The notes under the pieces were generated by a model. That model was not told the DNA's origin. It ran no database searches and saw only the letters and a list, made by a program, of their open reading frames with translations. The position numbers and the translations under genes are program-made. Positions 9,088 through 41,211 of a stretch of DNA of 64,000 nt are shown piece by piece. Origin of the DNA: Escherichia coli (GTDB lineage: Bacteria > Pseudomonadota > Gammaproteobacteria > Enterobacterales > Enterobacteriaceae); NCBI RefSeq assembly GCF_016903815.1, contig NZ_CP069973.1. One strand, given 5' to 3'. Within the stretch, counting starts at the first letter, position 1; every line of letters starts with the position of its first letter.

Positions 9088-9885
9088 TTAGAACATTACC
9101 TTATGACCGTACTGCTCAAGAATGCCTTTCACGCGTTCCATGGTCTCTTTCTTCGGTGGTTTAACACCATCAAGTTTGTATTCTTCACCCATCGCCACCC
9201 ATTTGTGTTTGCCAAGTTCGTGGTAGGGGAGAAGCTCGATTTTCTCAACGTTGCCCATATCACGGGTAAATTCACCGAGGCGATGCGCTGAATCGTCATC
9301 GTCAGACCAGCCTGGGACAACAACGTAGCGGATCCACACCTTCACATTTTTGTTCGCCAGATATTTGGCGAACTCCAGCGTGCGGTGGTTTGAAACTCCA
9401 ACCAGATTTTGGTGGATCTCGTCGTTCATCTGTTTGAGATCGAGCATTACCAGGTCGGTTACTTCCAGCAGTTCATCAATCACCGGATCGTAACGACGAA
9501 CAAAACCGTTGGTGTCCAGACAGGTATGAATGCCTTCTTTTTTGCAGGCGCGGAACCAGTCACGAACAAACTCAGCTTGCAGGATTGCTTCACCGCCGGA
9601 TGCGGTAACGCCGCCGCCGGAAGCGTTCATAAAGTGGCGATAGGTCACCACCTCTTTCATTAAATCTTCAACGGTAACTTCTTTACCGCCATGCGTGTCC
9701 CAGGTGTCGCGGTTATGACAATACAGGCAGCGCATCAGGCAGCCCTGGAAAAAGGTGATAAAGCGAATACCCGGGCCGTCTACGGTTCCACAGGATTCAA
9801 AGGAGTGAATGCGACCAATAACTGACTTGGTAGCCCCCGCCGCAGCGGTATTTTCTGTTGTATTACAATTAGTTAAATTACTCAT
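9088..9885 (-). CDS. pflA: pyruvate formate-lyase activating enzyme (radical SAM); 5' end rebuilt by prophage-derived sequence
   Basis: Radical-SAM CxxxCxxC motif (CLMRCLYC) and body of PflA from ...[22 protein letters not shown]; the first 20 codons ([20 protein letters not shown]) lie in prophage-side sequence upstream of the att core. Confidence 0.85.
9814..9826. repeat. attL core (13-bp direct repeat ACCAATAACTGAC)
   Basis: Identical 13-mer at 43269-43281 at the opposite prophage end; lies within pflA codons 2-5 (native numbering). Confidence 0.6.
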
Positions 9886-9916
9886 ATCGCTTCAATTGGC
9901 TCTAGTTAACTCTGGT

Positions 9917-10912
9917 TTATGGACGCATTATGGACATTCCTGACACCGGGTTAAGAGTCACAGCATCTTGTAAGAAATCCGGTGCAAAGTGTGCGTAGGT
10001 CATAGTTTGCTGAATGTTAGAATGACCCAGGATGCGCTGCAATGTGATTATGTTACCTCCATTCATTATAAAATGTGTGGCAAATGTATGCCTCAAAACA
10101 TGCACTGCCTGTCCGTCAGGTAAATCGGGTTTTACTTCCCTGAGAGCGTTGCGCACTTTGTAGTAACTGGCATTAAAAAGCCTGCCTGAATTTTTGGTCT
10201 TGATCCGTTTAATCAGGTCCTGCGAAACGGGAATTGTCCTGCGCTTTCCGTTTTTAGTTTTCATAAACGTAACCATCTGGTTAATGATGTGTTCAGCTTT
10301 CAAATTAGACACTTCACTCCAGCGTCCACCAGTAGAAAGGCAGACCAGAGTTGCATTTAACTCATCACCATCAAGCATGGATAACAGCCGCGTAATCTCT
10401 TCACTGGACAAAAAAGCCATTTCCGTAACAGCTTCACGTAACCGCTTAACCTCACGGAACGGGTTGTGAGAGTGATATTCACCGGCGTCAATTAACTTGG
10501 TGAACATCCCGCTCATTATTGCCAGATGCCGATTTACGCTGGCTGGTTTTAGGCCATCGTTCATCATTACAACGCGATAATCAGTTATCGTTTTCTTTGT
10601 TAGCTGGTCCGCCCTGGACACTCCCATCTCGGCAAATTTGGCGATTATTGTCGTCAAACGCCCTCGTTCAATATCTCCACGCTCATGTGATTTTCCGTGA
10701 TATATCCACCATCTGCCTAACAACTCTGTAAGAGTTCGGCGGTCGGCCGGCTTCTCCAACCACTCTTTGTTGTGGTAGTTAACCAGGACATGACGTTCGA
10801 ATGCTTGAGCTTCACCTTTAGTTTTAAATTTCCGCCTGATACGTTTTCCATCTGCACCCTGCGGTCTGACGTCCACTTCATAACGACCATCATCGAGCTT
10901 TTTAATAGACAT
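9917..10912 (-). CDS. int: phage tyrosine integrase
   Basis: 331 aa; C-terminal catalytic region with HVLRHTFAT...GHSNIQQTMTYAHF (R-H-R-Y type); adjacent to att core. Confidence 0.9.
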   Translation of the reverse strand: MSIKKLDDGRYEVDVRPQGADGKRIRRKFKTKGEAQAFERHVLVNYHNKEWLEKPADRRTLTELLGRWWIYHGKSHERGDIERGRLTTIIAKFAEMGVSRADQLTKKTITDYRVVMMNDGLKPASVNRHLAIMSGMFTKLIDAGEYHSHNPFREVKRLREAVTEMAFLSSEEITRLLSMLDGDELNATLVCLSTGGRWSEVSNLKAEHIINQMVTFMKTKNGKRRTIPVSQDLIKRIKTKNSGRLFNASYYKVRNALREVKPDLPDGQAVHVLRHTFATHFIMNGGNIITLQRILGHSNIQQTMTYAHFAPDFLQDAVTLNPVSGMSIMRP

Positions 10913-11005
10913 AAAGCCCTCCGATGACGCTGTTTACTTCTACTACTTGAAAATTAATGCAATTTTCTTTCGTACATTTACTGCACACATATGCTGAATA
11001 AATCG

Positions 11006-11317
11006 TCAGCCAGTCTTTTGGTCTGAGTGGTGCAAGGTTGTTGAGTCTTGCCCAATGTGCGCGAGCGCCGGGGCTATTTGTCCGCCAGCGGGATCAGTTT
11101 CATCAAACATGAACCAGTCACGGTACTTGCGAAATCTTTCTGGCTTGAAAAATTTCATACCTGCGTCAAAAGACATCTTTACTTTTCCCTGCTCATATCC
11201 AGCATAGGTGTTGTAGTTAATTCCAGTTAATTCAGCAACTTGCTTCCTTGTCATTCTTTCTGATTCCCGAATAAGTGCGAGTTTCTCTGCTTGAGATGTG
11301 ATTTGTGTATTTGACAT
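11006..11317 (-). CDS. phage immunity repressor (P2 C-like, HTH)
   Basis: Small HTH protein (MTRKQVAELTGINYNTYAGYEQG) divergent from the early operon, next to int as in P2; start codon uncertain (11317 or 11365). Confidence 0.6.
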   Translation of the reverse strand: MSNTQITSQAEKLALIRESERMTRKQVAELTGINYNTYAGYEQGKVKMSFDAGMKFFKPERFRKYRDWFMFDETDPAGGQIAPALAHIGQDSTTLHHSDQKTG

Positions 11318-11421
11318 GAATTGTCGTATCTCGTAATTTATGTTGTATGCGACACGCCAGAACAACGCAGAGCGGCTTCAAATAGCTCTGATTGAATGGC
11401 ACCAAAGTTGAGGATATCAAA

Positions 11422-20686: not shown

Positions 20687-22458
20687 CAGTAAAACTCCAG
20701 AATGGTGGATGTCAGCGGGGTGCTGATACCGGCGGTGAGTGGCTCATTTAACAGGGCGTGCATGGTCGCCCAGGCGAGGTCGGCGTGGCTGGCTTCCTCG
20801 CTGCGGCTGGCTTCATAGGTGGCACTGCGTCCGCTGCTGGTCATGGTCTTGCGGATAGCCATAAACGAGCTGGTGATGTCGGTGGCGCTGACGTCATATT
20901 CCAGACAGCCACGGCGGATAACGTCTTTGGCCTTGAGCACCATTGCGGTTTTCATTTCCGGCGTGTAGCGGATGTCGCGCGCGGCGGGATAGAACGAGCG
21001 CACGAGCTGGAACACGCCGACACCGAGGCCGGTGGCATCAATTCCGATGTATTCGACGTTGTATTTTTCGGTGAGTTTGCGGATGGATTCAGCCTGGGTG
21101 GCAAAGTCCATGCCTTTCCACTGGTGACGCTCAAGTATTCTGAATTTGCCACCGGCCACCACCGGCGGTGCCAGCACCACGCATCCGGCGCTGTCGCCAC
21201 GGTGTGACGGGTCGTAACCAATCCATACCGGGCGGGAGCCGAACGGATTGGCGGCAAACGGTGCATAGTCTTCCCATTCTTCCAGCGTGTCGACCATGCA
21301 GCGTTGCAGCTCCTCGAACGGGAACACCGATGCCTTGTCGTCAACAAATTCACACATGAACAGGTTTTTAAAATCGTCGGCGCTGTTTTCGCGTTTGAGC
21401 TGCTCAATGTCGAACAGCGTGCAGCCGCCTTTCAGGGCGTCCTCAATGGTGACAATCTGTCGCCACTGGCCGTCCGCACAGAGAAGCCCACCGGCAAGGG
21501 CGTTATGACTGACGTCGATTTCCACGCGTTCGGCGGCGCTGGCGCGTCCCCGGTTGAACAGTTCACCCGACCAGAACGGGTAGGCGTCGTGCGCCAGCGT
21601 GGACGGGGTGGAGAAATAGGTCGAGCGCAGGTGACTCTGTGAGGCCATACCTGATGCCACCTTACGCAGTACCTGAAAATTCGGGATCCAGAAAATCTCG
21701 TCGACGTACAGGTCGCCGTTATGGCTCTGTGCGGTGTTGGAGTTGGTGCCGAGAAAAATCAGTTTTGCGCCGTTATTGCCCAGGACAATCGGGTCACCGG
21801 TCAGGTCAACGTCAACCAGCCGGGCAAAGGCGATGATGTATTCGCGGAACACATACGCCTGCGTTTTACTGGCCGACAGAAAAATCTGGTTATGACCGGT
21901 TTTCAGGGCGCGCAGCAGCGCCTCGCGGGAAAAATAAAACGTTGCGCCAATCTGGCGGGATTTCAGGATATCGCGGATGCGGTGCTCAAGCCCGGCGCGA
22001 TACCAGTGCAACTGATAGTCGAAAGACTGCTCAAAGAAAATCTGCTCCAGCTTTTCGATGGCCTCGTCACTGAAAAAATTCTTTTTCGGTTTGCGCCGCC
22101 CGCCTTTGTTGCGGTTAGCGACGTTCGGATTAAGGTCTGCCTCGTTGCCGGTCTGGCTGTAACGGTTGACCCGTGCCAGTCGTTCAATCTGGCGTCCCAG
22201 CAGGTCAATTTCCTTGAAGTCACCGCCGGTTTTCTGCGGTTTGATGATGAGCTGGGTCAGCCGCGCTTCCAGACTCATTTCGACACGGCTGATGGGGGCA
22301 ACGCTGTCCCAGCCGTCGCGCTGTTTCCAGCTCTGCACCGTCGGGCGTTTCATCTGCAACATGGCGGCAATCTGCGGCACGGAAAACCCCTGCCAGTACA
22401 GCAGCGCCGCCTGACGACGCGGGTCGTGTAAAAGAGTGGTGTCTGTGGTGATGGTCAT
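20686..22458 (-). CDS. terminase large (ATPase) subunit (P2 gpP-like)
   Basis: About 590 aa at internal Met (MTITTDTT...); gene order Q-P as in P2. Confidence 0.85.
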   Translation of the reverse strand: MTITTDTTLLHDPRRQAALLYWQGFSVPQIAAMLQMKRPTVQSWKQRDGWDSVAPISRVEMSLEARLTQLIIKPQKTGGDFKEIDLLGRQIERLARVNRYSQTGNEADLNPNVANRNKGGRRKPKKNFFSDEAIEKLEQIFFEQSFDYQLHWYRAGLEHRIRDILKSRQIGATFYFSREALLRALKTGHNQIFLSASKTQAYVFREYIIAFARLVDVDLTGDPIVLGNNGAKLIFLGTNSNTAQSHNGDLYVDEIFWIPNFQVLRKVASGMASQSHLRSTYFSTPSTLAHDAYPFWSGELFNRGRASAAERVEIDVSHNALAGGLLCADGQWRQIVTIEDALKGGCTLFDIEQLKRENSADDFKNLFMCEFVDDKASVFPFEELQRCMVDTLEEWEDYAPFAANPFGSRPVWIGYDPSHRGDSAGCVVLAPPVVAGGKFRILERHQWKGMDFATQAESIRKLTEKYNVEYIGIDATGLGVGVFQLVRSFYPAARDIRYTPEMKTAMVLKAKDVIRRGCLEYDVSATDITSSFMAIRKTMTSSGRSATYEASRSEEASHADLAWATMHALLNEPLTAGISTPLTSTILEFY

Positions 22459-22631
22459 GAATACCTCGCCGTGATGAATACACGGCAAGGCTACTGAGTC
22501 GCGCCCCGCGATTCGCTAAGGTGCTGTTGTGTCAGTGATAAGCCATCCGGGACTGATGGCGGAGGATGCGCATCGTCGGGAAACTGATGCCGACATGTGA
22601 CTCCTCTAATCACTATTCAGGACTCCTGACA

Positions 22632-23486
22632 ATGGCAAAAAAAGTCTCAAAATTCTTTCGTATCGGCGTTGAGGGTGACACCTGTGACGGGCGTGTCATC
22701 AGTGCGCAGGATATTCAGGAAATGGCCGAAACCTTTGACCCGCGTGTCTATGGTTGCCGCATTAACCTGGAACATCTGCGCGGCATCCTGCCTGACGGTA
22801 TTTTTAAACGTTATGGCGATGTGGCCGAACTGAAGGCCGAAAAGATTGACGATGATTCGGCGCTGAAAGGCAAATGGGCGCTGTTTGCGAAAATCACCCC
22901 GACCGATGACCTTATCGCGATGAACAAGGCCGCGCAGAAGGTCTATACCTCAATGGAAATTCAGCCGAACTTTGCCAACACCGGCAAATGTTATCTGGTG
23001 GGTCTGGCCGTCACCGATGACCCGGCAAGCCTCGGCACGGAATACCTGGAATTCTGCCGCACGGCAAAACACAACCCCCTGAACCGCTTCAAATTAAGCC
23101 CTGAAAACCTGATTTCAGTGGCAACGCCTGTTGAGCTGGAATTTGAAGACCTGCCTGAAACCGTGTTTACCGCCCTGACCGAAAAGGTGAAATCCATTTT
23201 TGGCCGCAAACAGGCCAGCGATGACGCCCGTCTGAATGACGTGCATGAAGCGGTGACCGCTGTTGCTGAACATGTGCAGGAAAAACTGAGCGCCACTGAG
23301 CAGCGCCTCGCTGAGATGGAAACTGCCTTTTCCGCTCTTAAGCAGGAGGTGACTGACAGGGCGGATGAAACCAGTCAGGCATTCAGCCGCCTGAAAAACA
23401 GTCTCGACCACACCGAAAGTCTGACCCAGCAGCGCCGCAGCAAGGCCACCGGCGGTGGCGGTGACGCCCTGATGACGAACTGCTGA
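22632..23486 (+). CDS. capsid scaffolding protein (P2 gpO-like)
   Basis: 284 aa from MAKKVSKFF...; coiled-coil-rich C-terminus; precedes the major capsid gene. Confidence 0.75.
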   Translation: MAKKVSKFFRIGVEGDTCDGRVISAQDIQEMAETFDPRVYGCRINLEHLRGILPDGIFKRYGDVAELKAEKIDDDSALKGKWALFAKITPTDDLIAMNKAAQKVYTSMEIQPNFANTGKCYLVGLAVTDDPASLGTEYLEFCRTAKHNPLNRFKLSPENLISVATPVELEFEDLPETVFTALTEKVKSIFGRKQASDDARLNDVHEAVTAVAEHVQEKLSATEQRLAEMETAFSALKQEVTDRADETSQAFSRLKNSLDHTESLTQQRRSKATGGGGDALMTNC

Positions 23487-23540
23487 CCGGGGGCAGTCCG
23501 GGAAAACCTTCACGATTAACCCTTAATTTCAGGAATAACT

Positions 23541-24614
23541 ATGCGCCAGGAAACCCGCTTTAAATTTAATGCCTACCTGTCCCGTGTTGCCGAACTGAAC
23601 GGCATCGACGCCGGTGATGTGTCGAAAAAATTCACCGTTGAACCTTCGGTCACCCAGACCCTGATGAACACCATGCAGGAGTCCTCTGATTTCCTGACCC
23701 GCATCAACATTGTGCCGGTCAGCGAAATGAAAGGGGAAAAAATTGGCATCGGTGTCACCGGCTCCATCGCCAGCACCACCGATACCGCCGGTGGCACCGA
23801 GCGTCAGCCGAAGGACTTCTCGAAGCTGGCGTCAAACAAGTACGAATGCGACCAGATTAACTTCGATTTTTATATCCGCTACAAAACGCTGGACCTGTGG
23901 GCGCGTTATCAGGATTTCCAGCTCCGTGTCCGTAACGCCATTATCAAACGCCAGTCCCTTGATTTCATCATGGCCGGTTTTAACGGCGTGAAGCGTGCCG
24001 AAACCTCTGACCGCAACAGTAATCCGATGCTGCAGGATGTGGCGGTCGGCTGGCTGCAGAAATACCGCAATGAAGCCCCGGCGCGCGTGATGAGCAAGGT
24101 CACTGACGAGGAAGGTCGCACCACCTCTGAGGTCATCCGCGTGGGTAAGGGCGGTGATTATGCCAGCCTCGATGCACTGGTGATGGATGCGACCAACAAC
24201 CTGATTGAGCCGTGGTATCAGGAAGACCCTGACCTTGTGGTGATTGTGGGGCGTCAGCTACTGGCGGACAAGTATTTCCCCATCGTTAACAAGGAGCAGG
24301 ACAACAGCGAAATGCTGGCCGCTGACGTCATCATCAGCCAGAAACGCATCGGTAACCTGCCGGCGGTACGCGTCCCGTACTTCCCGGCGGATGCGATGCT
24401 CATCACGAAGCTGGAAAACCTGTCCATCTACTACATGGATGACAGCCATCGCCGCGTGATTGAGGAGAACCCGAAACTCGACCGCGTGGAGAACTACGAG
24501 TCAATGAACATTGATTACGTGGTGGAAGACTACGCCGCCGGTTGTCTGGTGGAAAAAATCAAGGTCGGTGACTTCTCCACACCGGCCAAGGCGACCGCAG
24601 AGCCGGGAGCGTAA
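23541..24614 (+). CDS. major capsid protein (P2 gpN-like)
   Basis: 357 aa, size and position identical to P2 N. Confidence 0.85.
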   Translation: MRQETRFKFNAYLSRVAELNGIDAGDVSKKFTVEPSVTQTLMNTMQESSDFLTRINIVPVSEMKGEKIGIGVTGSIASTTDTAGGTERQPKDFSKLASNKYECDQINFDFYIRYKTLDLWARYQDFQLRVRNAIIKRQSLDFIMAGFNGVKRAETSDRNSNPMLQDVAVGWLQKYRNEAPARVMSKVTDEEGRTTSEVIRVGKGGDYASLDALVMDATNNLIEPWYQEDPDLVVIVGRQLLADKYFPIVNKEQDNSEMLAADVIISQKRIGNLPAVRVPYFPADAMLITKLENLSIYYMDDSHRRVIEENPKLDRVENYESMNIDYVVEDYAAGCLVEKIKVGDFSTPAKATAEPGA

Positions 24615-24617
24615 CCG

Positions 24618-25361
24618 ATGACGAGTCCCGCACAGCGCCACATGATGCGGGTCTCGGCAGCGATGACCGCGCAGCGGGAAGCCGCCCCGCTGCGACATGC
24701 AACTGTCTATGAGCAGATGCTGGTTAAGCTCGCCGCAGACCAGCGCACACTGAAAGCGATTTATTCAAAAGAGCTGAAGGCCGCGAAAAAACGCGAACTG
24801 CTGCCGTTCTGGTTGCCGTGGGTGAACGGCGTGCTGGAGCAGGGCAAAGGTGCACAGGATGACATTCTGATGACGGTCATGCTGTGGCGTCTGGATACCG
24901 GCGATATTGCCGGTGCGCTGGAGATTGCCCGTTATGCCCTGAAGTACGGTCTGACCATGCCGGGTAAACACCGCCGCACCCCGCCGTACATGTTCACCGA
25001 GGAGGTCGCGCTTGCGGCCATGCGTGCCCACGCTGCCGGTGAGTCTGTGGATACCCGCCTGCTGACGGAGACCCTTGAACTGACTGCCGCTGCTGACATG
25101 CCTGATGAAGTGCGCGCAAAGCTGCACAAAATCACCGGTCTGTTTCTGCGTGACGGTGGTGATGCCGCCGGTGCGCTGGCGCACCTGCAACGTGCGACAC
25201 AGCTCGACTGTCAGGCAGGCGTCAAAAAAGAGATTGAACGACTGGAGCGGGAGCTGAAACCGAAGCCGGAGCCGCAACCCAAAGCGGCCACCCGTGCCAC
25301 GCGTAAGACCCGGAGCGTGACACCGGCAAAACGTGGACGCCCGAAAAAGAAAGCCAGTTAA
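24618..25361 (+). CDS. terminase small subunit / endonuclease (P2 gpM-like)
   Basis: 247 aa, basic C-terminus; position after N. Confidence 0.75.
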   Translation: MTSPAQRHMMRVSAAMTAQREAAPLRHATVYEQMLVKLAADQRTLKAIYSKELKAAKKRELLPFWLPWVNGVLEQGKGAQDDILMTVMLWRLDTGDIAGALEIARYALKYGLTMPGKHRRTPPYMFTEEVALAAMRAHAAGESVDTRLLTETLELTAAADMPDEVRAKLHKITGLFLRDGGDAAGALAHLQRATQLDCQAGVKKEIERLERELKPKPEPQPKAATRATRKTRSVTPAKRGRPKKKAS

Positions 25362-25460
25362 CAACCGAATGCGCCCCGCGCCAGGGCGGCACGCCGGTCA
25401 GTGAGGGTGAATCACCTGACACTACACCGGCGTCCACCGCCCGACTTTTCAGAGGTAGTC

Positions 25461-25970
25461 ATGATGACGCTGATTATTCCGCGAAAGGAGGCTCCTGTAT
25501 CCGGTGAGGGTACGGTGGTCATCCCGCAACCGGCAGGCGACGAGCCGGTGATTAAAAACACGTTCTTTTTTCCCGATATCGACCCGAAGCGCGTCCGGGA
25601 ACGTATGCGCCTTGAGCAGACCGTCGCCCCCGCCCGTCTGCGTGAGGCCATCAAGTCAGGCATGGCTGAAACGAATGCGGAGCTGTACGAGTACCGCGAA
25701 CAGAAAATTGCCGCCGGTTTTACGCGTCTGGCTGACGTCCCGGCAGACGATATCGACGGTGAAAGCATCAAAGTTTTTTACTACGAGCGCGCCGTGTGTG
25801 CGATGGCGACCGCGTCGCTTTATGAGCGTTATCGCGGCGTGGATGCCAGTGCGAAAGGCGACAAGAAGGCCGACAGCATTGACAGCACCATTGATGAGCT
25901 GTGGCGGGATATGCGCTGGGCGGTGGCGCGCATCCAGGGCAAGCCGCGCTGCATCGTGAGTCAAATCTGA
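25461..25970 (+). CDS. head completion/stabilisation protein (P2 gpL-like)
   Basis: 169 aa from internal Met; position between M and X. Confidence 0.7.
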   Translation: MMTLIIPRKEAPVSGEGTVVIPQPAGDEPVIKNTFFFPDIDPKRVRERMRLEQTVAPARLREAIKSGMAETNAELYEYREQKIAAGFTRLADVPADDIDGESIKVFYYERAVCAMATASLYERYRGVDASAKGDKKADSIDSTIDELWRDMRWAVARIQGKPRCIVSQI

Positions 25971-26173
25971 TGAAGACCTTTGCGCTACAGGGCGACACGC
26001 TCGACGCCATTTGTGTCCGCTATTACGGGCGCACTGAGGGCGTGGTCGAGGCCGTGCTCGCCGCAAATCCGGGACTGGCTGAACTGGGGGCGGTGCTGCC
26101 ACACGGCACCGCCGTCGAACTGCCCGACGTTCAGACCGCGCCCGTGGCTGAAACTGTCAATCTGTGGGAGTAA
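25970..26173 (+). CDS. tail protein X (LysM-like, P2 gpX-like)
   Basis: 67 aa (MKTFALQGDTLDAICVRYYG...), start overlaps the L stop (TGATG). Confidence 0.7.
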   Translation: MKTFALQGDTLDAICVRYYGRTEGVVEAVLAANPGLAELGAVLPHGTAVELPDVQTAPVAETVNLWE

Positions 26174-26176
26174 CGC

Positions 26177-26458
26177 ATGACAGCAGAAGAAAAAAGCGTC
26201 CTGTCGCTTTTCATGATTGGGGTGCTGATTGTTGTCGGCAAGGTGCTTGCCGGTGGTGAACCTATCACCCCGCGTCTGTTTATCGGGCGCATGTTGCTCG
26301 GTGGTTTTGTCTCGATGGTTGCCGGTGTTGTTCTGGTGCAGTTTCCTGACCTGTCACTGCCTGCGGTGTGCGGCATCGGCTCCATGCTGGGTATCGCCGG
26401 TTATCAGGTGATTGAGATTGCCATTCAGCGCCGTTTTAAGGGCAGGGGGAAACCGTAA
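26177..26458 (+). CDS. holin (P2 gpY-like)
   Basis: 93 aa with hydrophobic helices and charged C-terminus; first gene of the lysis cassette. Confidence 0.65.
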   Translation: MTAEEKSVLSLFMIGVLIVVGKVLAGGEPITPRLFIGRMLLGGFVSMVAGVVLVQFPDLSLPAVCGIGSMLGIAGYQVIEIAIQRRFKGRGKP

Positions 26459-26955
26459 TGCCGGTAATTAACACGCATCAGAATATCGCCGCCTTTCTCG
26501 ACATGCTGGCCGTGTCCGAAGGGACGGCGAATCATCCGCTGACGAAAAACCGGGGCTATGACGTGATAGTCACCGGACTGGACGGAAAGCCGGAAATTTT
26601 CACCGACTACAGTGACCACCCGTTCGCGCATGGCCGACCGGCGAAGGTGTTTAACCGTCGCGGTGAAAAATCCACGGCCTCCGGTCGCTATCAGCAGCTT
26701 TACCTGTTCTGGCCGCACTACCGCAAACAGCTTGCCCTGCCGGATTTCAGTCCGTTGTCACAGGACAGGCTCGCCATTCAGTTGATCCGCGAACGCGGTG
26801 CACTGGATGACATCCGGGCGGGACGCATTGAGCGCGCCATTTCACGCTGTCGCAATATCTGGGCGTCCCTGCCGGGTGCCGGTTACGGTCAGCGTGAGCA
26901 TTCACTGGAAAAACTGGTCACCGTCTGGCGTACCGCCGGCGGCGTACCGGCTTAA
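26458..26955 (+). CDS. endolysin (P2 gpK-like lysozyme/transglycosylase)
   Basis: 165 aa; catalytic-type motif DMLAVSEGT near the N-terminus. Confidence 0.7.
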   Translation: MPVINTHQNIAAFLDMLAVSEGTANHPLTKNRGYDVIVTGLDGKPEIFTDYSDHPFAHGRPAKVFNRRGEKSTASGRYQQLYLFWPHYRKQLALPDFSPLSQDRLAIQLIRERGALDDIRAGRIERAISRCRNIWASLPGAGYGQREHSLEKLVTVWRTAGGVPA

Positions 26956-26969
26956 ACGGAGTAAACACC

Positions 26970-27395
26970 ATGAAGAAATTATCCCTTTCACTGATGCTGA
27001 ACGTGTCGCTGGCGCTGATGCTGGCACTGTCCCTGATTTACCCGCAGAGCGTGGCCGTCAGTTTTGTCGCCACCTGGGCGATTCTGGCGACGGTTATCTG
27101 TGTGGTTGCCGGTGGTGTCGGCGTGTATGCCACGGAGTATGTGCTGGAACGCTACGGGCGGGAGCTGCCGCCGGAATCGCTGGCCGTGAAGATTGTCACG
27201 TCGCTGTTTTTGCAGCCGGTGCCGTGGCGCAGACGGGCGGCGGCTCTGGTGGTGATGGTGGCGACGTTTATCTCGCTGGTCGCTGCCGGGTGGATTTTTA
27301 CCGCGCTGATTTATCTTGTGGCGTCGCTGTTTTTCCGGCTGATACGTAAAGCCTGTCGTCAGCGTCTTGAGGGGCGGGAACTATGTCAAAGCTGA
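26970..27395 (+). CDS. LysA-like lysis-timing membrane protein
   Basis: 141 aa, several TM helices, position after endolysin. Confidence 0.55.
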   Translation: MKKLSLSLMLNVSLALMLALSLIYPQSVAVSFVATWAILATVICVVAGGVGVYATEYVLERYGRELPPESLAVKIVTSLFLQPVPWRRRAAALVVMVATFISLVAAGWIFTALIYLVASLFFRLIRKACRQRLEGRELCQS

Positions 27396-27808
27396 TGATT
27401 GTGCTGGTCGTGTTGTTATCGCTGGCGGTGGCCGGTCTGTTTCTGGTGAAACACAAAAATGCCAGCCTGCGCGCCTCGCTGGACAGGGCGAATAACGTCG
27501 CCAGTGAACAGCAGACGACCATCACCATGCTGAAAAATCAGCTTCATGTTGCCATCACCAGGGCAGACAAAAACGAGCTGGCGCAGGTGGCACTGCGTCA
27601 GGAACTGGAGAACGCCGCGAAGCGTGAAGCACAGCGCGAGAAAACCATCACGAGGTTACTCAATGAAAACGAAGATTTTCGCCGCTGGTACGGTGCTGAC
27701 CTGCCTGATGCTGTGCGCCGGTTGCACCAGCGCCCGGCCTGCGCAGACGCCAGTGATTGTCCACAACGCCTGCCCGAAAGTGAGTCTTTGCCCGATGCCG
27801 GGCAGTGA
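27383..27808 (+). CDS. LysB-like (Rz-like spanin, inner-membrane component)
   Basis: 141 aa, N-terminal TM helix then coiled-coil region. Confidence 0.55.
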   Translation: MSKLMIVLVVLLSLAVAGLFLVKHKNASLRASLDRANNVASEQQTTITMLKNQLHVAITRADKNELAQVALRQELENAAKREAQREKTITRLLNENEDFRRWYGADLPDAVRRLHQRPACADASDCPQRLPESESLPDAGQ

Positions 27809-27953
27809 CCCGCAGAAGAACGGCGATTTAAGTGCCGATATCCGGCTGCTTGAGAACGCGCTGGCACGCTGTGCCAGCCAGGTAAAAATGATTAAACACT
27901 GTCAGGACGAAAACGATGCTCAAACCCGACAGCCTGCGCAGGGCGCTGACTGA
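27663..27953 (+). CDS. LysC-like (Rz1-like outer-membrane lipoprotein spanin), begins inside lysB in another frame
   Basis: Lipoprotein signal with lipobox (MKTKIFAAGTVLTCLMLCAGCTS), Pro-rich; 96 aa like P2 LysC. Confidence 0.5.
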   Translation: MKTKIFAAGTVLTCLMLCAGCTSARPAQTPVIVHNACPKVSLCPMPGSDPQKNGDLSADIRLLENALARCASQVKMIKHCQDENDAQTRQPAQGAD

Positions 27954-28383
27954 TGCCGTCACGGTGCTGAAAACCAGTCCCGAGATGCTGCGGATATTCG
28001 TGGATAACGGGAGTATTGCCTCCACGCTGGCGACGTCGCTGTCATTCGAAAAGCGTTACACGCTCAATGTCATTGTGACCGACTTTACCGGTGATTTTGA
28101 CCTGCTCATCGTGCCGGTGCTGGCGTGGCTGCGGGAAAATCAGCCCGACATCATGACCACCGACGAAGGCCAGAAAAAGGGCTTCACGTTTTATGCGGAC
28201 ATCAACAATGACAGCAGCTTTGATATCAGCATCAGCCTGATGCTGACCGAGCGCACGCTGGTCAGTGAGGTGGACGGCGCACTGCATGTGAAGAATATCC
28301 CGGAACCTCCGCCGCCGGAGCCGGTCACTCGCCCGATGGAGCTTTATATCAATGGCGAACTGGTGAGCAAGTGGGATGAATGA
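27916..28383 (+). CDS. tail completion protein (P2 gpR-like)
   Basis: 155 aa, size and position as P2 R. Confidence 0.7.
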   Translation: MLKPDSLRRALTDAVTVLKTSPEMLRIFVDNGSIASTLATSLSFEKRYTLNVIVTDFTGDFDLLIVPVLAWLRENQPDIMTTDEGQKKGFTFYADINNDSSFDISISLMLTERTLVSEVDGALHVKNIPEPPPPEPVTRPMELYINGELVSKWDE

Positions 28384-28828
28384 GTTTAAGCGTTTTGAAG
28401 ACCGGCTGACCGGGCTGATTGAATCACTGTCACCATCAGGGCGTCGGCGACTGAGCACCGAACTGGCGAAACATCTGCGGCAGAGTCAGCAGCGCCGGGT
28501 GATGGCACAGAAAGCCCCGGACGGCACACCCTACGCACCACGCCAGCAGCAGAGCGCCAGAAAAAAGACCGGTCGTGTTAAGCGAAAAATGTTTGCGAAA
28601 CTTATCACCAGTCGTTTTTTGCATATCCGCGCCAGCCCGGAACAGGCATCAATGGAGTTTTACGGCGGAAAGTCACCGAAAATCGCCAGTGTGCATCAGT
28701 TCGGTCTGTCGGAAGAAACCCGGAAAGACGGTAAGAAAATTGATTATCCGGCGCGTCCTCTGCTCGGCTTTACCGGTGAGGATGTGCAGATGATTGAAGA
28801 GATTATCCTGGCTCACCTTGAGCGTTAG
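28376..28828 (+). CDS. tail completion protein (P2 gpS-like)
   Basis: 150 aa, size and position as P2 S. Confidence 0.7.
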   Translation: MNEFKRFEDRLTGLIESLSPSGRRRLSTELAKHLRQSQQRRVMAQKAPDGTPYAPRQQQSARKKTGRVKRKMFAKLITSRFLHIRASPEQASMEFYGGKSPKIASVHQFGLSEETRKDGKKIDYPARPLLGFTGEDVQMIEEIILAHLER

Positions 28829-28857
28829 TTTTATCCAGGCAGAGGCTGATGCGCAAT

Positions 28858-28894
28858 TAAACATTGAGCGGCCATGCTGGTCGCTCAATGTTTA
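28858..28894. repeat. perfect 13-bp inverted repeat (TAAACATTGAGCG / CGCTCAATGTTTA) with 11-nt loop
   Basis: Read directly from the sequence; sits between convergent S and the cargo gene, so it could be a bidirectional terminator. Confidence 0.6.
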
Positions 28895-28899
28895 GAGGT

Positions 28900-29685
28900 T
28901 TATGAGTGATTTTTATTTGATGCTTTGTATTCTAAAACCTTCTTATTGGCGTAAAAGAATTTTGTATATGACAGGAATATAACCAGACCTGAAGTGAAAT
29001 AGACGAGGGATAGTATTAATAATGCTTTTTTGTGACTGTTATTGTCTTTAATCTCCTGGCTTAACCATTCGGAGTCCTCCTCGTTTAACTGTAAGAGCTT
29101 ATTGCAGGCGATCTCAGGAAGTGTGTCTTTTATAAATACGTTTTGCAGTCTCTTGCAATCGGCAAGGCTATAAGTTTTATTAAATTCAACTGCTTTATTT
29201 TTGAAGGATAAAAGAACTTTGTCACTATAAACATAGTACATCATGTTTTTATATGGTATGCCTATGGCATCCCTTACTATAACGGATTGTTCGTTGTGTA
29301 TGTAACATGCGAGGAGAATGTAAAAAATACTGGCCAGAATTACAATTATTGTTTTAATTACGTGTGGTGGTTTTGTTATGTCACCCCAGATGCGAGTAAG
29401 GAAAAAATACGATGTTTTTAGTTTTCCATCAATCAGTCCCTGCTGTATCATTCTCACATTTTCAATGCCTGATACATTGATTCCGTTAATTATTTTAAAT
29501 AGTTGAATGTCGCGCCACTCGCGGTCAAGTCTTTTTAATTTTTTGTCTGAATATCCAAAATTGAGATAATGTGCAATAAGCCTCATAAGGTTACTTTTAC
29601 CAAAGCTAAAAAATGCTAATACTGCAAAGCTACAAAGGAAAAAAACGATTAGCCCCCACACATTAGTCACATTATAGCTGACCAT
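28900..29685 (-). CDS. cargo membrane protein (three predicted TM helices), function unknown
   Basis: 261 aa, AT-rich, opposite orientation to flanking late genes, at the P2 orf30 variable position between S and V. Confidence 0.5.
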   Translation of the reverse strand: MVSYNVTNVWGLIVFFLCSFAVLAFFSFGKSNLMRLIAHYLNFGYSDKKLKRLDREWRDIQLFKIINGINVSGIENVRMIQQGLIDGKLKTSYFFLTRIWGDITKPPHVIKTIIVILASIFYILLACYIHNEQSVIVRDAIGIPYKNMMYYVYSDKVLLSFKNKAVEFNKTYSLADCKRLQNVFIKDTLPEIACNKLLQLNEEDSEWLSQEIKDNNSHKKALLILSLVYFTSGLVIFLSYTKFFYANKKVLEYKASNKNHS

Positions 29686-29768
29686 TACGCTCTCCTTGAA
29701 TGTTGTCTGGTAGTTCTACAAATGAATCCAGATAGCATAACTTTTATATATTGTGCAATCTCACATGC

Positions 29769-30404
29769 ATGAACACTCTCGCAAATATTCAGGAACTCGC
29801 GCGCGCACTGCGCAACATGATTCGCACCGGCATTATCGTCGAAACCGACCTTAACGCCGGTCGCTGCCGTGTGCAGACCGGCGGCATGTGCACCGACTGG
29901 CTTCAGTGGCTGACCCATCGTGCCGGACGTTCACGCACATGGTGGGCACCTTCCGTGGGGGAACAGGTGCTGATTCTGGCCGTGGGCGGTGAACTCGACA
30001 CGGCGTTCGTTCTGCCGGGGATTTATTCCGGCGATAACCCTCCGCCGTCTGCGTCGGCGGATGCCCTGCACATACGTTTCCCTGACGGGGCGGTGATTGA
30101 ATATGAACCCGAAACCAGTGCACTCACGGTAAGCGGAATTAAAACGGCCAGCGTGACGGCTTCTGATTCTGTTACTGCCACGGTGCCGGTGGTCATGGTG
30201 AAAGCATCAACCCGCGTCACCCTGGACACCCCGGAGGTGGTCTGCACCAACAGGCTGATTACCGGCACGCTGGAAGTGCAGAAGGGCGGGACGATGCGCG
30301 GCAACATTGAACACACCGGCGGTGAACTCTCATCAAACGGTAAGGTACTGCATACCCATAAACACCCCGGCGACAGCGGCGGCACAACCGGGAGTCCTTT
30401 ATGA
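29769..30404 (+). CDS. baseplate assembly protein V (spike)
   Basis: 211 aa from internal Met; gene order V-W-J-I as in P2. Confidence 0.75.
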   Translation: MNTLANIQELARALRNMIRTGIIVETDLNAGRCRVQTGGMCTDWLQWLTHRAGRSRTWWAPSVGEQVLILAVGGELDTAFVLPGIYSGDNPPPSASADALHIRFPDGAVIEYEPETSALTVSGIKTASVTASDSVTATVPVVMVKASTRVTLDTPEVVCTNRLITGTLEVQKGGTMRGNIEHTGGELSSNGKVLHTHKHPGDSGGTTGSPL

Positions 30405-30748
30405 CAGCGCGTTATCTCGGAATGAATCGCAGTGATGGCCTGACTGTCACTGACCTTGAGCATATCAGCCAGAGTATCGGCGATATCCTGCGCACACCGG
30501 TCGGCTCACGGGTGATGCGTCGTGATTACGGCTCGTTGCTGGCATCAATGATTGACCAGCCGCAGACCCCGGCGCTTGAGTTGCAGATTAAGGTCGCCTG
30601 TTACATGGCGGTGCTGAAATGGGAACCCCGCGTCACCCTGTCATCCGTCACCACTGAGCGCAGTTTTGACGGGCGAATGACGGTCACGTTAACCGGCCAG
30701 CACAACGACACCGGCCAGCCACTTTCATTAACCATCCCTGTGAGTTGA
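30401..30748 (+). CDS. baseplate protein W (gp25-like)
   Basis: 115 aa, size as P2 W, overlaps V stop. Confidence 0.75.
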   Translation: MTARYLGMNRSDGLTVTDLEHISQSIGDILRTPVGSRVMRRDYGSLLASMIDQPQTPALELQIKVACYMAVLKWEPRVTLSSVTTERSFDGRMTVTLTGQHNDTGQPLSLTIPVS

Positions 30749-30752
30749 AACC

Positions 30753-31661
30753 ATGCCGATTATCGACCTGAACCAGCTACCCGCACCAGATGTGGTCGAG
30801 GAGCTGGACTTTGAAAGCATTCTCGCTGAACGCAAGGCGACACTGATTTCCCTTTACCCGGAAGATCAGCAGGAGGCGGTCGCCCGTACCCTGACACTGG
30901 AATCTGAGCCTCTCGTCAAACTGCTGGAAGAAAATGCTTATCGTGAGCTTATCTGGCGTCAGCGTGTGAATGAGGCCGCACGGGCGGTGATGCTGGCCTG
31001 TGCCGCCGGTAATGACCTTGATGTGATTGGTGCCAATTACAACACCACGCGCCTGACTATCACCCCGGCAGATGATTCGACCATTCCACCGACACCGGCA
31101 GTGATGGAATCTGACACCGATTATCGTCTGCGTATTCAGCAGGCTTTTGAGGGCTTAAGCGTCGCCGGGTCAGTGGGAGCCTATCAGTATCATGGTCGCA
31201 GTGCTGACGGGCGTGTCGCGGATATTTCTGTCACCAGTCCGTCTCCTGCCTGTGTCACCATCTCTGTGCTGTCACGTGAAAATAACGGCGTCGCATCCGA
31301 AGACCTGCTGGCTGTGGTGCGTAACGCCCTTAATGGCGAGGACGTCAGGCCGGTGGCCGACCGCGTGACCGTGCAGTCTGCCGCCATCGTTGAATACCAG
31401 ATAAACGCCACGCTTTACCTTTACCCTGGTCCCGAAAGCGAACCCATCCGCGCTGCCGCTGTGAAAAAGCTGGAAGCGTATATCACGGCACAGCACCGGC
31501 TGGGGCGCGACATCCGTCTGTCTGCCATTTATGCCGCTTTGCATGTGGAAGGTGTGCAGCGTGTCGAACTGGCTGCACCACTGGCCGACATCGTGCTCAA
31601 CAGTACGCAGGCGTCTTTCTGTACCGAATACCGCGTCGTGACCGGAGGCTCGGATGAGTGA
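30753..31661 (+). CDS. baseplate protein J
   Basis: 302 aa, size as P2 J. Confidence 0.8.
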   Translation: MPIIDLNQLPAPDVVEELDFESILAERKATLISLYPEDQQEAVARTLTLESEPLVKLLEENAYRELIWRQRVNEAARAVMLACAAGNDLDVIGANYNTTRLTITPADDSTIPPTPAVMESDTDYRLRIQQAFEGLSVAGSVGAYQYHGRSADGRVADISVTSPSPACVTISVLSRENNGVASEDLLAVVRNALNGEDVRPVADRVTVQSAAIVEYQINATLYLYPGPESEPIRAAAVKKLEAYITAQHRLGRDIRLSAIYAALHVEGVQRVELAAPLADIVLNSTQASFCTEYRVVTGGSDE

Positions 31662-32184
31662 TTCGCGACTGCTGCCGACCGGCTCATCACCGCTTGAGGT
31701 CGCCGCCGCAAAAGCCTGTGCGGAAATTGAAAAAACGCCGGTCAGTATTCGTGAGCTGTGGAACCCGGACACCTGTCCGGCAAATCTGCTGCCGTGGCTG
31801 GCGTGGGCGTTTTCGGTCGACAGGTGGGATGAAAAGTGGCCGGAAGCGACAAAACGCGCCGTTATCCGCGATGCGTATTTCATCCACTGTCATAAAGGCA
31901 CAATAGGTGCAATCCGGCGTGTGGTGGAGCCGCTCGGCTATCTCATCAACGTGACGGAGTGGTGGGAAAACAGTGACCCGCCCGGCACCTTCCGGCTTGA
32001 TATTGGTGTACTGGAAAGCGGCATCACAGAGGCAATGTATCAGGAAATGGAACGGCTGATTGCTGATGCCAAACCTGCAAGCCGCCACCTTATTGGTCTG
32101 AACATTACCCGGGACATTCCCGGCTACCTGTTTGCCGGTGGTGTGGCTTATGACGGCGATGTAATTACGGTTTACCCCGGATAA
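31654..32184 (+). CDS. baseplate/tail protein I
   Basis: 176 aa, size as P2 I, overlaps J. Confidence 0.75.
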   Translation: MSDSRLLPTGSSPLEVAAAKACAEIEKTPVSIRELWNPDTCPANLLPWLAWAFSVDRWDEKWPEATKRAVIRDAYFIHCHKGTIGAIRRVVEPLGYLINVTEWWENSDPPGTFRLDIGVLESGITEAMYQEMERLIADAKPASRHLIGLNITRDIPGYLFAGGVAYDGDVITVYPG

Positions 32185-32194
32185 GTGAGGAATA

Positions 32195-34219
32195 ATGAGC
32201 ACAAAATTCAAAACCGTTATCACCACTGCCGGTGCAGCAAAGCTGGCAGCGGCAACCGCGCCGGGAGGGCGGAAGGTCAACATTACCACGATGGCCGTCG
32301 GGGATGGCGGTGGTAAATTGCCTGTCCCGGATGCCGGACAGACCGGGCTTATCCACGAAGTCTGGCGACATGCGCTGAACAAAATCAGCCAGGACAAACG
32401 AAACAGTAATTATATTATCGCAGAGCTGGTTATTCCGCCGGAGGTGGGCGGTTTCTGGATGCGTGAGCTTGGCCTGTACGATGATGCGGGAACGTTGATT
32501 GCCGTGGCGAACATGGCCGAAAGTTATAAGCCTGCCCTTGCCGAAGGCTCAGGGCGTTCGCAGACCTGCCGCATGGTCATCATCGTCAGCAGTGTGGCCT
32601 CAGTGGAGCTGACCATTGACACCACAACGGTGATGGCAACGCAGGATTATGTTGATGACAAAATTGCAGAACATGAACAGTCACGACGTCACCCTGACGC
32701 CTCGCTGACCGCAAAAGGTTTTACTCAGTTAAGCAGTGCGACCAACAGCACGTCTGAAACACTGGCTGCAACGCCAAAAGCCGTTAAGACGGTAATGGAT
32801 GAAACGAACAAGAAAGCGCCATTAAACAGCCCTGCACTGACCGGAACGCCAACGACGCCAACTGCGACAAAGGGGACTAATAATACTCAGATCGCAAACA
32901 CGGCTTTCGTTATGACCGCGATTGCCGCCCTTGTAGACTCGTCACCTGACGCACTGAATACGCTGAACGAGCTGGCAGCGGCGCTGGGTAACGACCCGAA
33001 TTTTGCTACCACCATGACTAATGCGCTTGCGGGTAAGCAACCGAAAGATGCTACCCTGACGGCGCTGGCGGGGCTTGCTACTGCGGCAGACAGGTTTCCG
33101 TATTTTACGGGGAATGATGTTGCCAGTCTGGCAACTCTGACAAAAGTCGGGCGGGATATTCTTGCGAAATCGACCGTTGCCGCCGTTATCGAATATCTCG
33201 GTTTACAGGAAACGGTAAACCGAGCCGGGAACGCCGTGCAAAAAAATGGCGATACCTTGTCCGGTGGACTTACTTTTGAAAACGACTCAATCCTTGCCTG
33301 GATTCGAAATACTGACTGGGCGAAGATTGGATTTAAAAATGATGCCGATGGTGACACTGATTCATACATGTGGTTTGAAGCAGGCGACAACGGCAATGAA
33401 TATTTCAAATGGAGAAGCCGCCAGAGCACCACAACAAAAGACCTGATGAATCTTAAATGGGATGCTTTGTATGTTCTTGTTAAAGCCCTTTTCAGCAGTG
33501 AAGTAAAAATATCGACAGTCAATGCACTGAGGATATTTAATTCATCTTTTGGTGCTATTTTTCGTCGTTCTGAAGAATGCCTGCATATCATCCCTACACG
33601 AGAGAATGAGGGAGAAAATGGTGATATAGGGCCACTACGCCCCTTTACGCTTAATCTCAGAACTGGTCGGATAAGCATGGGGCATGGTCTTGATGTTACA
33701 GGGGATATATTTGCAAAACGTTTTGCAATTAACAGTAGTACCGGCATGTGGATTCATATGCGTGACCAGAATGTTATTTTGGGACGCAATGCGGTATCCA
33801 CCGATGGTGCGCAGGCATTACTTCGTCAGGACCACGCTGATCGCAAATTTATGATTGGTGGACTGGGGAATAAGCAATTTGGCATCTACATGATTAATAA
33901 CTCAAGGACAGCCAATGGCACCGATGGTCAGGCGTACATGGACAACAATGGCAACTGGCTTTGTGGCTCGCAAGTTATTCCTGGCAACTATGGCAATTTT
34001 GATTCCAGATATGTGAAAGATGTTCGACTTGGTTCACAGCAATATTATGGAGTGAACAACTGGCAAACATGGAATTTCCAGTGCCCGTCAGGTCATGTAT
34101 TGTCTGGTATTAATGTTCAGGATACAGGGTCCAACTCTGCCGATAATATAGCGGGCGTTTATTACAGACCCGTTCAAAAGTATATAAATGGCACCTGGTA
34201 TAATGTAGCGAGCGTTTAA
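32195..34219 (+). CDS. tail fiber protein H
   Basis: 674 aa; conserved N-terminal baseplate-attachment region and Thr/Ala-rich repeats, divergent C-terminal receptor-binding part. Confidence 0.8.
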
Positions 34220-34220
34220 T

Positions 34221-34748
34221 ATGATGCACTTAAAGAAAATAAAAGCGGGTAACGCTAAAACACTGGAACAGTATGAGTTAACAAAGAAACACGGAGTTAT
34301 CTGGCTTTACTCTGAGGACGGAAAAAACTGGTATGAGGAAGTGAAGAACTTTCAGCCAGATACAATAAAGATTGTTTACGATGAAAATAATATTATTGTC
34401 GCTATCACCAGAGATGCTTCAACGCTTAATCCTGAAGGTTTTAGCGTTGTCGAGGTTCCTGATATTACCGCCAACCGACGTGCTGATGACTCAGGGAAAT
34501 GGATGTTTAAGGATGGTGCCGTGATTAAGCGGATTTATACGGCAGACGAACAGCAACAACAGGCCGAATCACAAAAGGCCGCGTTACTTTCCGAAGCTGA
34601 ATCAGTTATCCAGCCGCTGGAACGCGCCGTCAGGCTGAATATGGCGACGGATGAGGAGCGCGCACGACTGGAGTCATGGGAACGCTACAGCGTTCTGGTC
34701 AGCCGTGTGGATCCTGCAAATCCTGAATGGCCGGAAATACCGCAATAA
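34221..34748 (+). CDS. tail fiber assembly chaperone G
   Basis: 175 aa immediately after H. Confidence 0.7.
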
Positions 34749-35038
34749 GTTGTATGATATCTGGAGTGAGCTAACGTATCTATGGCACAGAGTAAAACTT
34801 AATCTGACAGTCTGCTCTGTACCAAAAGCGGAACTTGCTTACATCGTGCTATGTTAGTTTGCTGGGAGCAGGTCATTATCTACGTGATTGCTATTTTATA
34901 ACTTGGATAAAATGGGGGATGAACATAATATCGAGACAGTGATTGCAGAGTTAGTCATTATAGGCGGGCATCAGTTCATGCCGGATCTCTAATGCAATTA
35001 TCAGGAAAATATGGGACGTTTTATCAATCAGAGGAAAT

Positions 35039-36265: not shown

Positions 36266-36426
36266 ATGTCCATGAGGTTCACACCCACAACGGGGAGCAG
36301 GTCACTTCCTATTGTTTGATTGACATACCATAACGTCTGCTTTTGGCTCAAAGCAGACTGTCTGATTTGATAGCTTTTGGGCTATGTAAATTGTCAGTTG
36401 AAAAATGAGTGAGTACAAATCAGGAC

Positions 36427-36454
36427 GGGCGGGCGAGTTGCCCGCCTTTTCTTT
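36427..36454 (+). terminator. rho-independent terminator after the cargo gene
   Basis: GGGCGGGC-GAGTT-GCCCGCC followed by TTTTCTTT. Confidence 0.6.
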
Positions 36455-36551
36455 AATCTGTTGTTTCATCCACTGACCAGCCAGGTCAAATAGCGTCTCA
36501 TGCTCTGCACAACAGAAAATAGTTGCACCCATTAACCACGGAGTTAAACGG

Positions 36552-37742: not shown

Positions 37743-37754
37743 GGAGCCTGACCG

Positions 37755-38273
37755 ATGGCAATGCCGCGCAAACTCAAGTTAATGAACGTCTTTCTGAACG
37801 GCTACAGCTATCAGGGCGTCGCGAAGTCCGTCACGCTACCAAAACTGACCCGTAAGCTCGAAAACTATCGCGGTGCGGGGATGAACGGCAGCGCACCGGT
37901 AGACCTCGGCCTTGATGACGATGCGCTGTCAATGGAGTGGTCGCTCGGTGGCTTCCCGGATTCGGTTATCTGGGAGCTTTACGCCGCAACCGGTGTGGAT
38001 TCCGTACCGATTCGTTTTGCAGGCTCTTACCAGCGCGACGATACCGGCGAAACGGTGGCCGTCGAGGTGGTCATGCGTGGACGTCAGAAAGAAATCGACA
38101 CCGGCGAGGGCAAACAGGGAGAAGATACCGAGTCGAAAATCTCCGTGGTCTGCACCTATTTCCGGCTGACGATGGACGGTAAGGAGCTGGTCGAAATCGA
38201 CACCATCAACATGATTGAGAAGGTGAACGGCGTCGACCGGCTGGAGCAACACCGCCGCAATATCGGCCTGTGA
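37755..38273 (+). CDS. tail tube protein FII
   Basis: 172 aa, size as P2 FII. Confidence 0.85.
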   Translation: MAMPRKLKLMNVFLNGYSYQGVAKSVTLPKLTRKLENYRGAGMNGSAPVDLGLDDDALSMEWSLGGFPDSVIWELYAATGVDSVPIRFAGSYQRDDTGETVAVEVVMRGRQKEIDTGEGKQGEDTESKISVVCTYFRLTMDGKELVEIDTINMIEKVNGVDRLEQHRRNIGL

Positions 38274-38329
38274 TTTTCATCCGGTCAGCCTGGCTGACCG
38301 GTTAACCCCGATTCAGAAGTGAGAAAACC

Positions 38330-41197: not shown

Positions 41198-41211
41198 GGA
41201 GGTGACGAAAA

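Follow-up and report, generated by a model that had tools for sequence, protein, structure and literature searches.

A P2-like prophage integrated at the start codon of pflA supplies a new 5′ end to the gene in Escherichia coli, and decayed counterparts of the junction persist in Salmonella enterica

Phages 21 and e14, which integrate in icd, and the phages that use tRNA genes carry a replacement for the gene end that they displace. Active lysogeny has a different outcome: the Listeria phage phi10403S in comK and the Streptococcus pyogenes element SpyCIM1 at mutL silence the host gene in the lysogen, and the gene is restored upon excision. Phage P2 recombines through a 27-bp core at the intergenic site locI, and its int gene is co-transcribed with the repressor gene C. 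Here, we describe a P2-like prophage at the start of pflA in a 64-kb stretch of E. coli DNA, hereafter referred to as the window. PflA activates pyruvate formate-lyase (PFL), the main anaerobic route for pyruvate in enteric bacteria.

As in the icd and tRNA-gene phages, the att core is intragenic and the reading frame of the gene extends into the phage arm, such that an intact product is encoded in the lysogen. However, those phages exchange a 3′ end for a near-homologous copy without affecting the promoter, whereas here the 5′ end is replaced, and phage sequence takes the place of the promoter, Shine-Dalgarno sequence (SD) and start codon. No homologous copy is involved, since 20 unrelated phage codons ending in AAG (Lys) stand in for the host Met1, with codons 2–5 in the core unchanged. 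Compared with the known cases of gene-end replacement, the differences are that a 5′ end is involved, that the added sequence is non-homologous and lengthens the product, and that the promoter is exchanged. The locus also resembles active lysogeny in that integration at or near the 5′ end parts the host gene from its own promoter. In contrast to comK and mutL, however, the pflA ORF is rebuilt in the lysogen, and a switch of that type was rejected because the ORF is intact in this state. With phage P2 the prophage shares the order int-C-cox, the position of ogr at the other end, the presence of Cox and a C-type repressor, arm repeats on both sides and P2-type virion genes. Unlike P2, it has a core of only 13 bp that lies within coding sequence, and its Int is ∼55% identical to other Peduovirus integrases, which points to a distinct specificity type. 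The coordinates of all features are collected in Table 1.

Table 1. Features of the prophage, its junctions and the flanking pfl genes in the 64-kb window
Feature	Position	Strand	Remarks
Complete P2-like (Peduovirus) prophage, 33.4 kb	9827..43268		Full P2-type replication, head, lysis, tail, D and ogr set
Fused pflA ORF, 265 aa	9088..9885	-	20-residue phage-derived head plus native PflA residues 2-246
attL common core ACCAATAACTGAC	9814..9826		Repeat count and four-way alignment
Phage-derived 5′ end of pflA	9827..9885	-	ATG 9885-9883, codons 2-19 and the first two bases of codon 20 (AAG)
int-pflA spacer, 31 nt	9886..9916	-	Weak purine-rich SD GAAG at 9893-9890; no terminator
int, 331-aa tyrosine recombinase of the P2-like group	9917..10912	-	PHROG 1 integrase, E 1.6e-80
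Direct repeats TTATGGAC x2, overlapping the int stop	9917..9935	+	Presumed Int arm-type (P′) sites
Promoter-like TTAACC-16-CATAAT (candidate)	9927..9954	-	9/12 matches; inside int 3′ end and arm repeats
-10-like boxes TATAAT (10070-10065) and CATAAT (10052-10047) (candidate)	10044..10070	-	Homologous position to Salmonella P484
C-type immunity repressor, upstream of int	11006..11317	-	phrog_147; same strand as int
cox (excisionase/early repressor), divergent from C	11422..11778	+	phrog_1831, phrog_272
ogr late-gene activator, attR end	42937..43155	+	NF007241, 177.6 bits
Direct repeats ATGTGGTC / ATGTGGAC	43198..43216	+	Presumed Int arm-type (P) sites
Stranded native pflA start	43257..43283	-	ATG, MSVIG plus three phage codons and TGA: MSVIGDIF*
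attR common core	43269..43281		Repeat count and four-way alignment
Native pflB-pflA intergenic region	43284..43474	-	pflB terminator, native pflA promoter and SD; identical to prophage-free alleles
pflB, intact	43475..45757	-

The core sequence ACCAATAACTGAC is present in two exact copies in the window. From 100 shuffles 0.05 copies were expected, and none of the shuffles gave two. The junctions were resolved by aligning four sequences: the prophage-free attB of E. coli G3X16-2, the attP of phage S164, and the attL and attR of the window. This alignment revealed a clean reciprocal exchange in which attB and attP give rise to attL and attR, and it showed that the core consists of the third base of pflA codon 1 plus codons 2–5, the phage having AAG where the host has ATG. 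A sequence-only reading of this DNA had placed the core at codons 2–5; these codons are indeed covered and the core does lie inside the pflA coding sequence, but the third base of codon 1 belongs to it as well. The same reading held that phage DNA provides pflA with a new ATG and a 20-residue extension, and this was borne out from two sides. The prophage-free allele of G3X16-2 encodes an ordinary PflA of 246 residues that starts with MSVIG and has no extended N-terminus. The attP of free phage S164, on the other hand, is identical to the phage-derived 5′ end in the window and carries the same ATG and 20 codons reading into the core, where the frame closes as a 28-codon ORF. As detailed below, this arrangement has also been kept in diverged relatives and in decayed junctions. 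The short common core stands as a direct repeat at the two prophage ends, as expected from the action of a tyrosine recombinase, and further direct repeats are present on both arms. The TTATGGAC repeats are conserved in the relatives from Rahnella and Citrobacter, and we take them to be arm-type sites by reference to the organisation of P2 attP. We therefore read the locus as one where a temperate P2-like phage has integrated by Int-mediated site-specific recombination at the pflA start codon.

The integrase displays the boxes TGGRWSE, HVLRHTFATH and TMTYAHF, which contain the R...HxxR...Y residues of tyrosine recombinases, and in other loci with the same junction, 331-aa Int proteins are listed with PF00589 and PF24624. 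Int was 99.6–100% identical in 20 phage records, some of which were deposited as isolated phages. Coverage of at least 80% of positions 9827–12500, in most cases at 95–99.7% identity, was found in 20 phage records, which places the prophage within Peduovirus; the matching Peduovirus records include vB_YpM_46, 11W, 12W and pro147. Judging from these records, the phage is active and common. The overall layout is that of P2, with int and C on one strand and cox, B and A divergent from them, with ogr and D at the opposite end, and with P2-type portal, terminase, scaffold, capsid and tail genes. This gene order was called from the annotation of the collinear prophage in NZ_CP023820.1, which is 99% identical except for one cargo locus, in combination with family scans.

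The prophage also carries cargo. At 16430–17666 (plus strand) lies a type VI retron pair, in which an HTH_VI protein (E 6e-30) is combined with a reverse transcriptase of the RT_VI type (E 1e-105). The neighbouring gene, in the cargo region that separates the replication gene from the portal gene, codes for a 454-aa FRG-domain protein (17775–19139, minus strand), which matches the candidate defence family PDC-S15 (E 9e-98). The tail-fibre assembly and tail-sheath genes are separated by an inserted gene for the Shedu nuclease SduA (35039–36265, plus strand; E 1e-219). Only the segment from 28834 to 29810 sets this prophage apart from that of E. coli strain 7/2, to which it is otherwise 99% identical, and the segment probably represents a further swappable cargo slot; it contains a 261-aa membrane-like ORF (28900–29685, minus strand) that had no match in PADLOC. 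The first 141 Int residues are also encoded, at 99% identity, on a 513-bp contig of a Terrisporobacter mayombei assembly, which has a coverage of 0.84x and is most likely a contamination.

The fused ORF matched the curated PflA profile NF008356 of NCBIfam with 523.5 bits (cutoff 375). Residues 21–265 corresponded to profile positions 2–246, so that the 20-residue head fell outside the match. These residues are identical to the crystallised enzyme PDB 3C8F, and the radical-SAM motif CxxxCxxC is present as CLMRCLYC. In the AlphaFold2 model, residues 1–18 had a pLDDT below 50 and no secondary structure, and the first strand started from residue 24, which suggests that the N-terminal tail is probably disordered. 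RefSeq (PGAP) already annotates the 265-aa product as pflA (WP_000067977.1), and in the lysogen records that we examined the fused ORF was intact, annotated as pflA and free of a pseudogene flag. Integration is thus predicted to yield a full-length radical-SAM activase with a 20-residue N-terminal tail. The new ATG follows the int stop codon directly and the two genes are co-directional, as the sequence-only reading had it. An in-frame TGA is located 9 nt before this ATG, which makes position 9885 the sole possible ATG, GTG or TTG start before Met51; indeed, no further in-frame ATG, GTG or TTG was found between this ATG and the radical-SAM motif. Integration would not kill pflA because a 5′-end cassette, composed of a weak SD, an ATG and 20 in-frame codons, is present on the int side of the phage attP.

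At the other end of the prophage, the original pflA start was found next to the end of pflB as the eight-codon remnant that had been proposed, the minus strand reading ATG TCA GTT ATT GGT GAC ATT TTT TGA. The native promoter, SD and ATG are now 33 kb away from pflA, on the far side of the prophage. The native promoter is reported to lie within the pflB-pflA intergenic region (Sauter & Sawers 1990). With this region cut off, the fused gene can be transcribed only from starts in phage DNA, and the proposed rewiring of pflA away from its native promoter follows by necessity, provided that the gene is expressed. Downstream of pflA, the end of ycaM lies 210 nt from the pflA stop codon (window 8878–9088). 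The gene ycaK, which flanks pflA in G3X16-2, is absent from the window, and at this place PGAP marks a 111-nt gene fragment in strain 7/2.

Where transcription of the fused gene would start was approached by scanning for signals. A terminator scan detected no minus-strand terminator between C, int and pflA. Consensus promoter scans of the window and of the Salmonella loci described below gave hits that agreed at no more than 9 of 12 positions, in numbers that did not exceed the shuffle expectation, and these hits were not conserved between the two Salmonella loci. In particular, the Salmonella match TTTACA-17-TATGGT was rejected because it is destroyed in the second locus.

Both junctions were present in 404 of the 5426 complete E. 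coli genomes (7.4%). The same junction was found in the type strain of E. albertii, and it is common in Klebsiella pneumoniae. In diverged relatives, namely Rahnella ecdela (Int 76% identical) and Citrobacter portucalensis (Int 79% identical), the layout is again int, ∼30 nt, an ATG with 20 codons, and pflA. An ATG plus exactly 20 open codons was retained without any length change in all nine diverged versions, which include variants from protein searches and, being related to one another, are not independent. None of the nine has a stop in frame 1, while frames 2 and 3 each have one to four. Under composition shuffles the probability of an open frame was 0.16–0.32 per sequence, so the support from the frame is moderate. 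The heads are 35–60% identical among the variants as compared to 78–98% for the enzyme body; residues M1, N3, L4, C7 and E11 are invariant, and synonymous changes occur at N3 and C7. Pairwise differences in the extension amounted to 155, 181 and 235 at codon positions 1, 2 and 3, respectively, and we did not accept this modest third-position excess as proof of coding selection, since it is too weak. The constant length of the arm could partly be due to attP spacing constraints in active phages. A short-peptide search, which has low power against a database of 5.8 billion sequences, returned the Citrobacter variant. A scan of viral contigs for the core produced near-invariant attP and attL copies along with chance matches and was of little use for selection tests. 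Altogether, this integrase lineage has conserved the arrangement across the Enterobacterales.

The 60-nt head diverges faster than both of its flanks. In the Rahnella pair L017 and L026, for instance, the heads are 68% identical versus 98% for the 60 nt upstream. Possible explanations are that the head is a neutral linker between constrained blocks, or that it is replaced patchwise by later integrations. At the Rahnella junction L017 (positions 4070–4090), head codon 20 is an ATG in the position of the native start, with a phage-derived GGGGGA 3 nt upstream. The upstream start is therefore not strictly required there, and this junction may use two starts.

The conservation of the cassette bears on the question of whether pflA is functional in the lysogen at all. 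Conceivably, integration could inactivate pflA or leave a strong hypomorph, in which case the in-frame ATG would be incidental, transcription and translation would be poor, and lysogens would simply tolerate less PflA. The weak SD, the lack of a strong promoter match upstream, and the fact that an open frame of 20 codons arises by chance with a probability of ∼0.2–0.3 in any single sequence would all agree with this idea. However, frame, length and ATG were kept in the nine diverged variants, and the junction is found in 7.4% of the complete E. coli genomes as well as in many Klebsiella without a pseudogene flag in the records inspected. Moreover, the cassette has been retained in three decayed fossils, and in Salmonella it provides the sole available start, with two mapped transcription start sites (TSSs) upstream of it. 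We therefore regard inactivation as very unlikely. Because the cassette is conserved and has been fixed in Salmonella, and because the junction is highly prevalent, we infer that the fused protein is made and active, and the fused start is very probably functional.

The fossil junctions deserve a closer description. In two diverged genomes of Salmonella enterica, focA, pflB and a terminator are followed by sopD2 on the minus strand, by ∼570–600 nt, and then by the ATG and 20 codons fused to pflA. This locus (pflB-sopD2-pflA, STM0970-STM0973) is like the E. coli junction in that the same 20-codon PflA head comes after a decayed int 3′ end, and unlike it in that there is no prophage but only a scar, with sopD2 in addition. 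Neither an integrase gene nor the native pflA ATG or promoter region was found in these two loci. The decayed int 3′ end was detected directly upstream of the ATG by tblastn with Int, covering residues 197–327 in the first locus (E 5e-8, 29% identity) and residues 254–307 in the second (E 1e-7). The 200 nt before the ATG are ∼95% identical between the two loci, and further upstream the identity drops to ∼65–70%, with indels; the 60-nt heads (L024 and L031) are 77% identical without an indel. The gene sopD2, which encodes an SPI-2 effector and has a GC content of 33%, lies within the prophage scar, with pflB on one side and the int remnant on the other (L024, 1470–2429; L031, 2436–3395). In the Rahnella-like loci L026 and L027, pflB and pflA are separated by 431 nt, and Int residues 269–331 are retained (E 5e-17) before the same cassette. 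A weaker int remnant was found upstream of the extension in L028 and L029 (E 7e-4 to 0.02). After the prophage had decayed, Salmonella enterica and, in a separate event, a Rahnella-like lineage were left with the junction as their resident pflA start. A 90% cluster of 6565 members around the protein P0015 was rejected as Salmonella-wide evidence, since it mixes all enterobacterial PflA proteins, of both 246 and 265 aa.

For Salmonella, TSSs are available from dRNA-seq of strain SL1344, in which pflA (SL1344_0907/STM0970) has two primary TSSs, whose 5′ UTRs measure 128 and 243 nt (Ramachandran et al. 2012, PMC3293720 Table S1). We located the corresponding promoter strings in L031, at 3775–3825 with an exact match and at 3649–3699 when one T/C difference was allowed. 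P484, which gives the 128-nt 5′ UTR, lies inside the int remnant, and in the alignment its -10 box TAAAAT falls opposite GGTAACATAATC of the intact int (10057–10044). P483, which gives the 243-nt 5′ UTR, is located further upstream, within the longer and weaker int alignment of L031 (29% identity) and outside the shorter alignments. The TSSs, 5′ UTR, start codon and first 20 codons of Salmonella pflA all belong to the foreign DNA that separates sopD2 from pflA, and phage int is recognisable in much of it. By analogy, the Salmonella fossil supports the rewiring of pflA in the lysogen, as both mapped TSSs lie in foreign DNA upstream of the fused start. The annotated pflA start of SL1344 is an ATG located 27 nt upstream of the conserved ATG (L031, 3953–3982), which gives a product of 274 aa. 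This upstream codon is ACG in the Salmonella locus L024, which identifies the 265-aa start as the conserved one; with either start, the product is an extended PflA.

These data also shed light on how pflA could be transcribed in the intact lysogen. One view is that the fused gene works but receives its transcripts almost exclusively by read-through from the repressor promoter Pc via C and int, which would tie PflA to the immunity state, such that PflA would fall when Cox shuts off Pc. Indeed, C, int and pflA all point the same way, no terminator was detected between them, and the ATG follows the int stop after just 31 nt. In addition, the repressor and integrase genes of a P2-family prophage were transcribed under all conditions tested in a published study. 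Pc of the C repressor could thus read through int into pflA. However, in the fossils pflA is expressed although both C and Pc are missing; the TSSs precede the fused start, and one of them maps within the int remnant. Furthermore, two or three independent decays have all kept the 3′-terminal 40–135 int codons upstream of the cassette, and -10-like boxes occur at the homologous place in the intact int. We consider it rather unlikely that read-through is essentially the only source. A combination of int-internal promoter(s) with read-through from Pc is favoured instead, because the int 3′ end was kept in the decays, a Salmonella TSS lies there, and the -10-like boxes of the intact int are at the homologous place.

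A separate question concerns the origin of the extension rather than its function. It could represent the captured pflA 5′ end of an ancestral host with a naturally long N-terminus, capture being the usual way for phages to come to carry a copy of a displaced gene end. PflA of Providencia and related bacteria is annotated with 16–20 extra residues that are rich in T, S and A and include a TTE/TTD motif, and no int remnant is found nearby. The likeness is nevertheless of low complexity and requires gaps, and the Providencia starts come from annotation alone, so that we judge such an origin to be unlikely. Among these PflA proteins (P0021, P0150 and P0149; L020-L023) the T/S-rich extensions measured 4–20 residues, and the pflB-pflA gap was 142 nt with no int remnant. 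The Providencia-type extensions could be natural or could be much older scars.

Taken together, we consider it highly probable that a P2-like phage integrates at the pflA start, brings its own 5′-end cassette, drives pflA from phage DNA, and does so across its lineage, the arrangement having become fixed after prophage decay. According to this model, a temperate P2-like phage would recombine via Int at the 13-bp core overlapping pflA codons 1–5, and the int-side arm would bring in the replacement cassette with a weak SD, an ATG and 20 codons in frame to the core. The native promoter, SD and ATG would end up at attR, and transcription would start in phage DNA from one or more constitutive promoters in the 3′ part of int, with added read-through from the lysogenic C-int transcript. 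After decay of the prophage, the cassette would remain as the resident pflA start, as in Salmonella enterica and the Rahnella-like lineage.

The sequences on which this model is based are public and annotated. In the literature open to us without subscription we found no description of pflA as the att site of a P2-like phage or of the Salmonella sopD2-pflA scar; text matches for sopD2 and pflA were discarded because they referred to pFLAG plasmids, and the paper on pro147 and P88 gives an attP for P88 alone. What is new is the presence of fossil forms of the junction in Salmonella enterica (pflB-sopD2-pflA) and in two other lineages. The arrangement is a real and common variant of intragenic phage integration.

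In ∼7% of the complete E. coli genomes and in many Klebsiella, the start of pflA, and necessarily its transcription, would be phage-supplied. As a consequence, the PFL capacity of these clinical lineages may depend on the state of the prophage. The fossils indicate that the arrangement works well enough to become fixed. A more far-reaching idea, which we regard as speculative and improbable, is that the head with its invariant M-x-N-L-x-x-C-x-x-x-E pattern is a selected module that changes the production or regulation of PflA, and that the sopD2 islet is a prophage scar in which a dead int serves as pflA promoters; if so, the phage lineage, and later Salmonella, would have gained control over a central anaerobic enzyme. 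The start codon and at least one promoter of Salmonella pflA seem to be derived from the attachment arm of a phage and from an integrase gene that is now dead, beside sopD2. The pflA junction therefore offers an example of prophage domestication that reaches into core metabolism, and of how an integration site at the 5′ end of a gene can be kept harmless.
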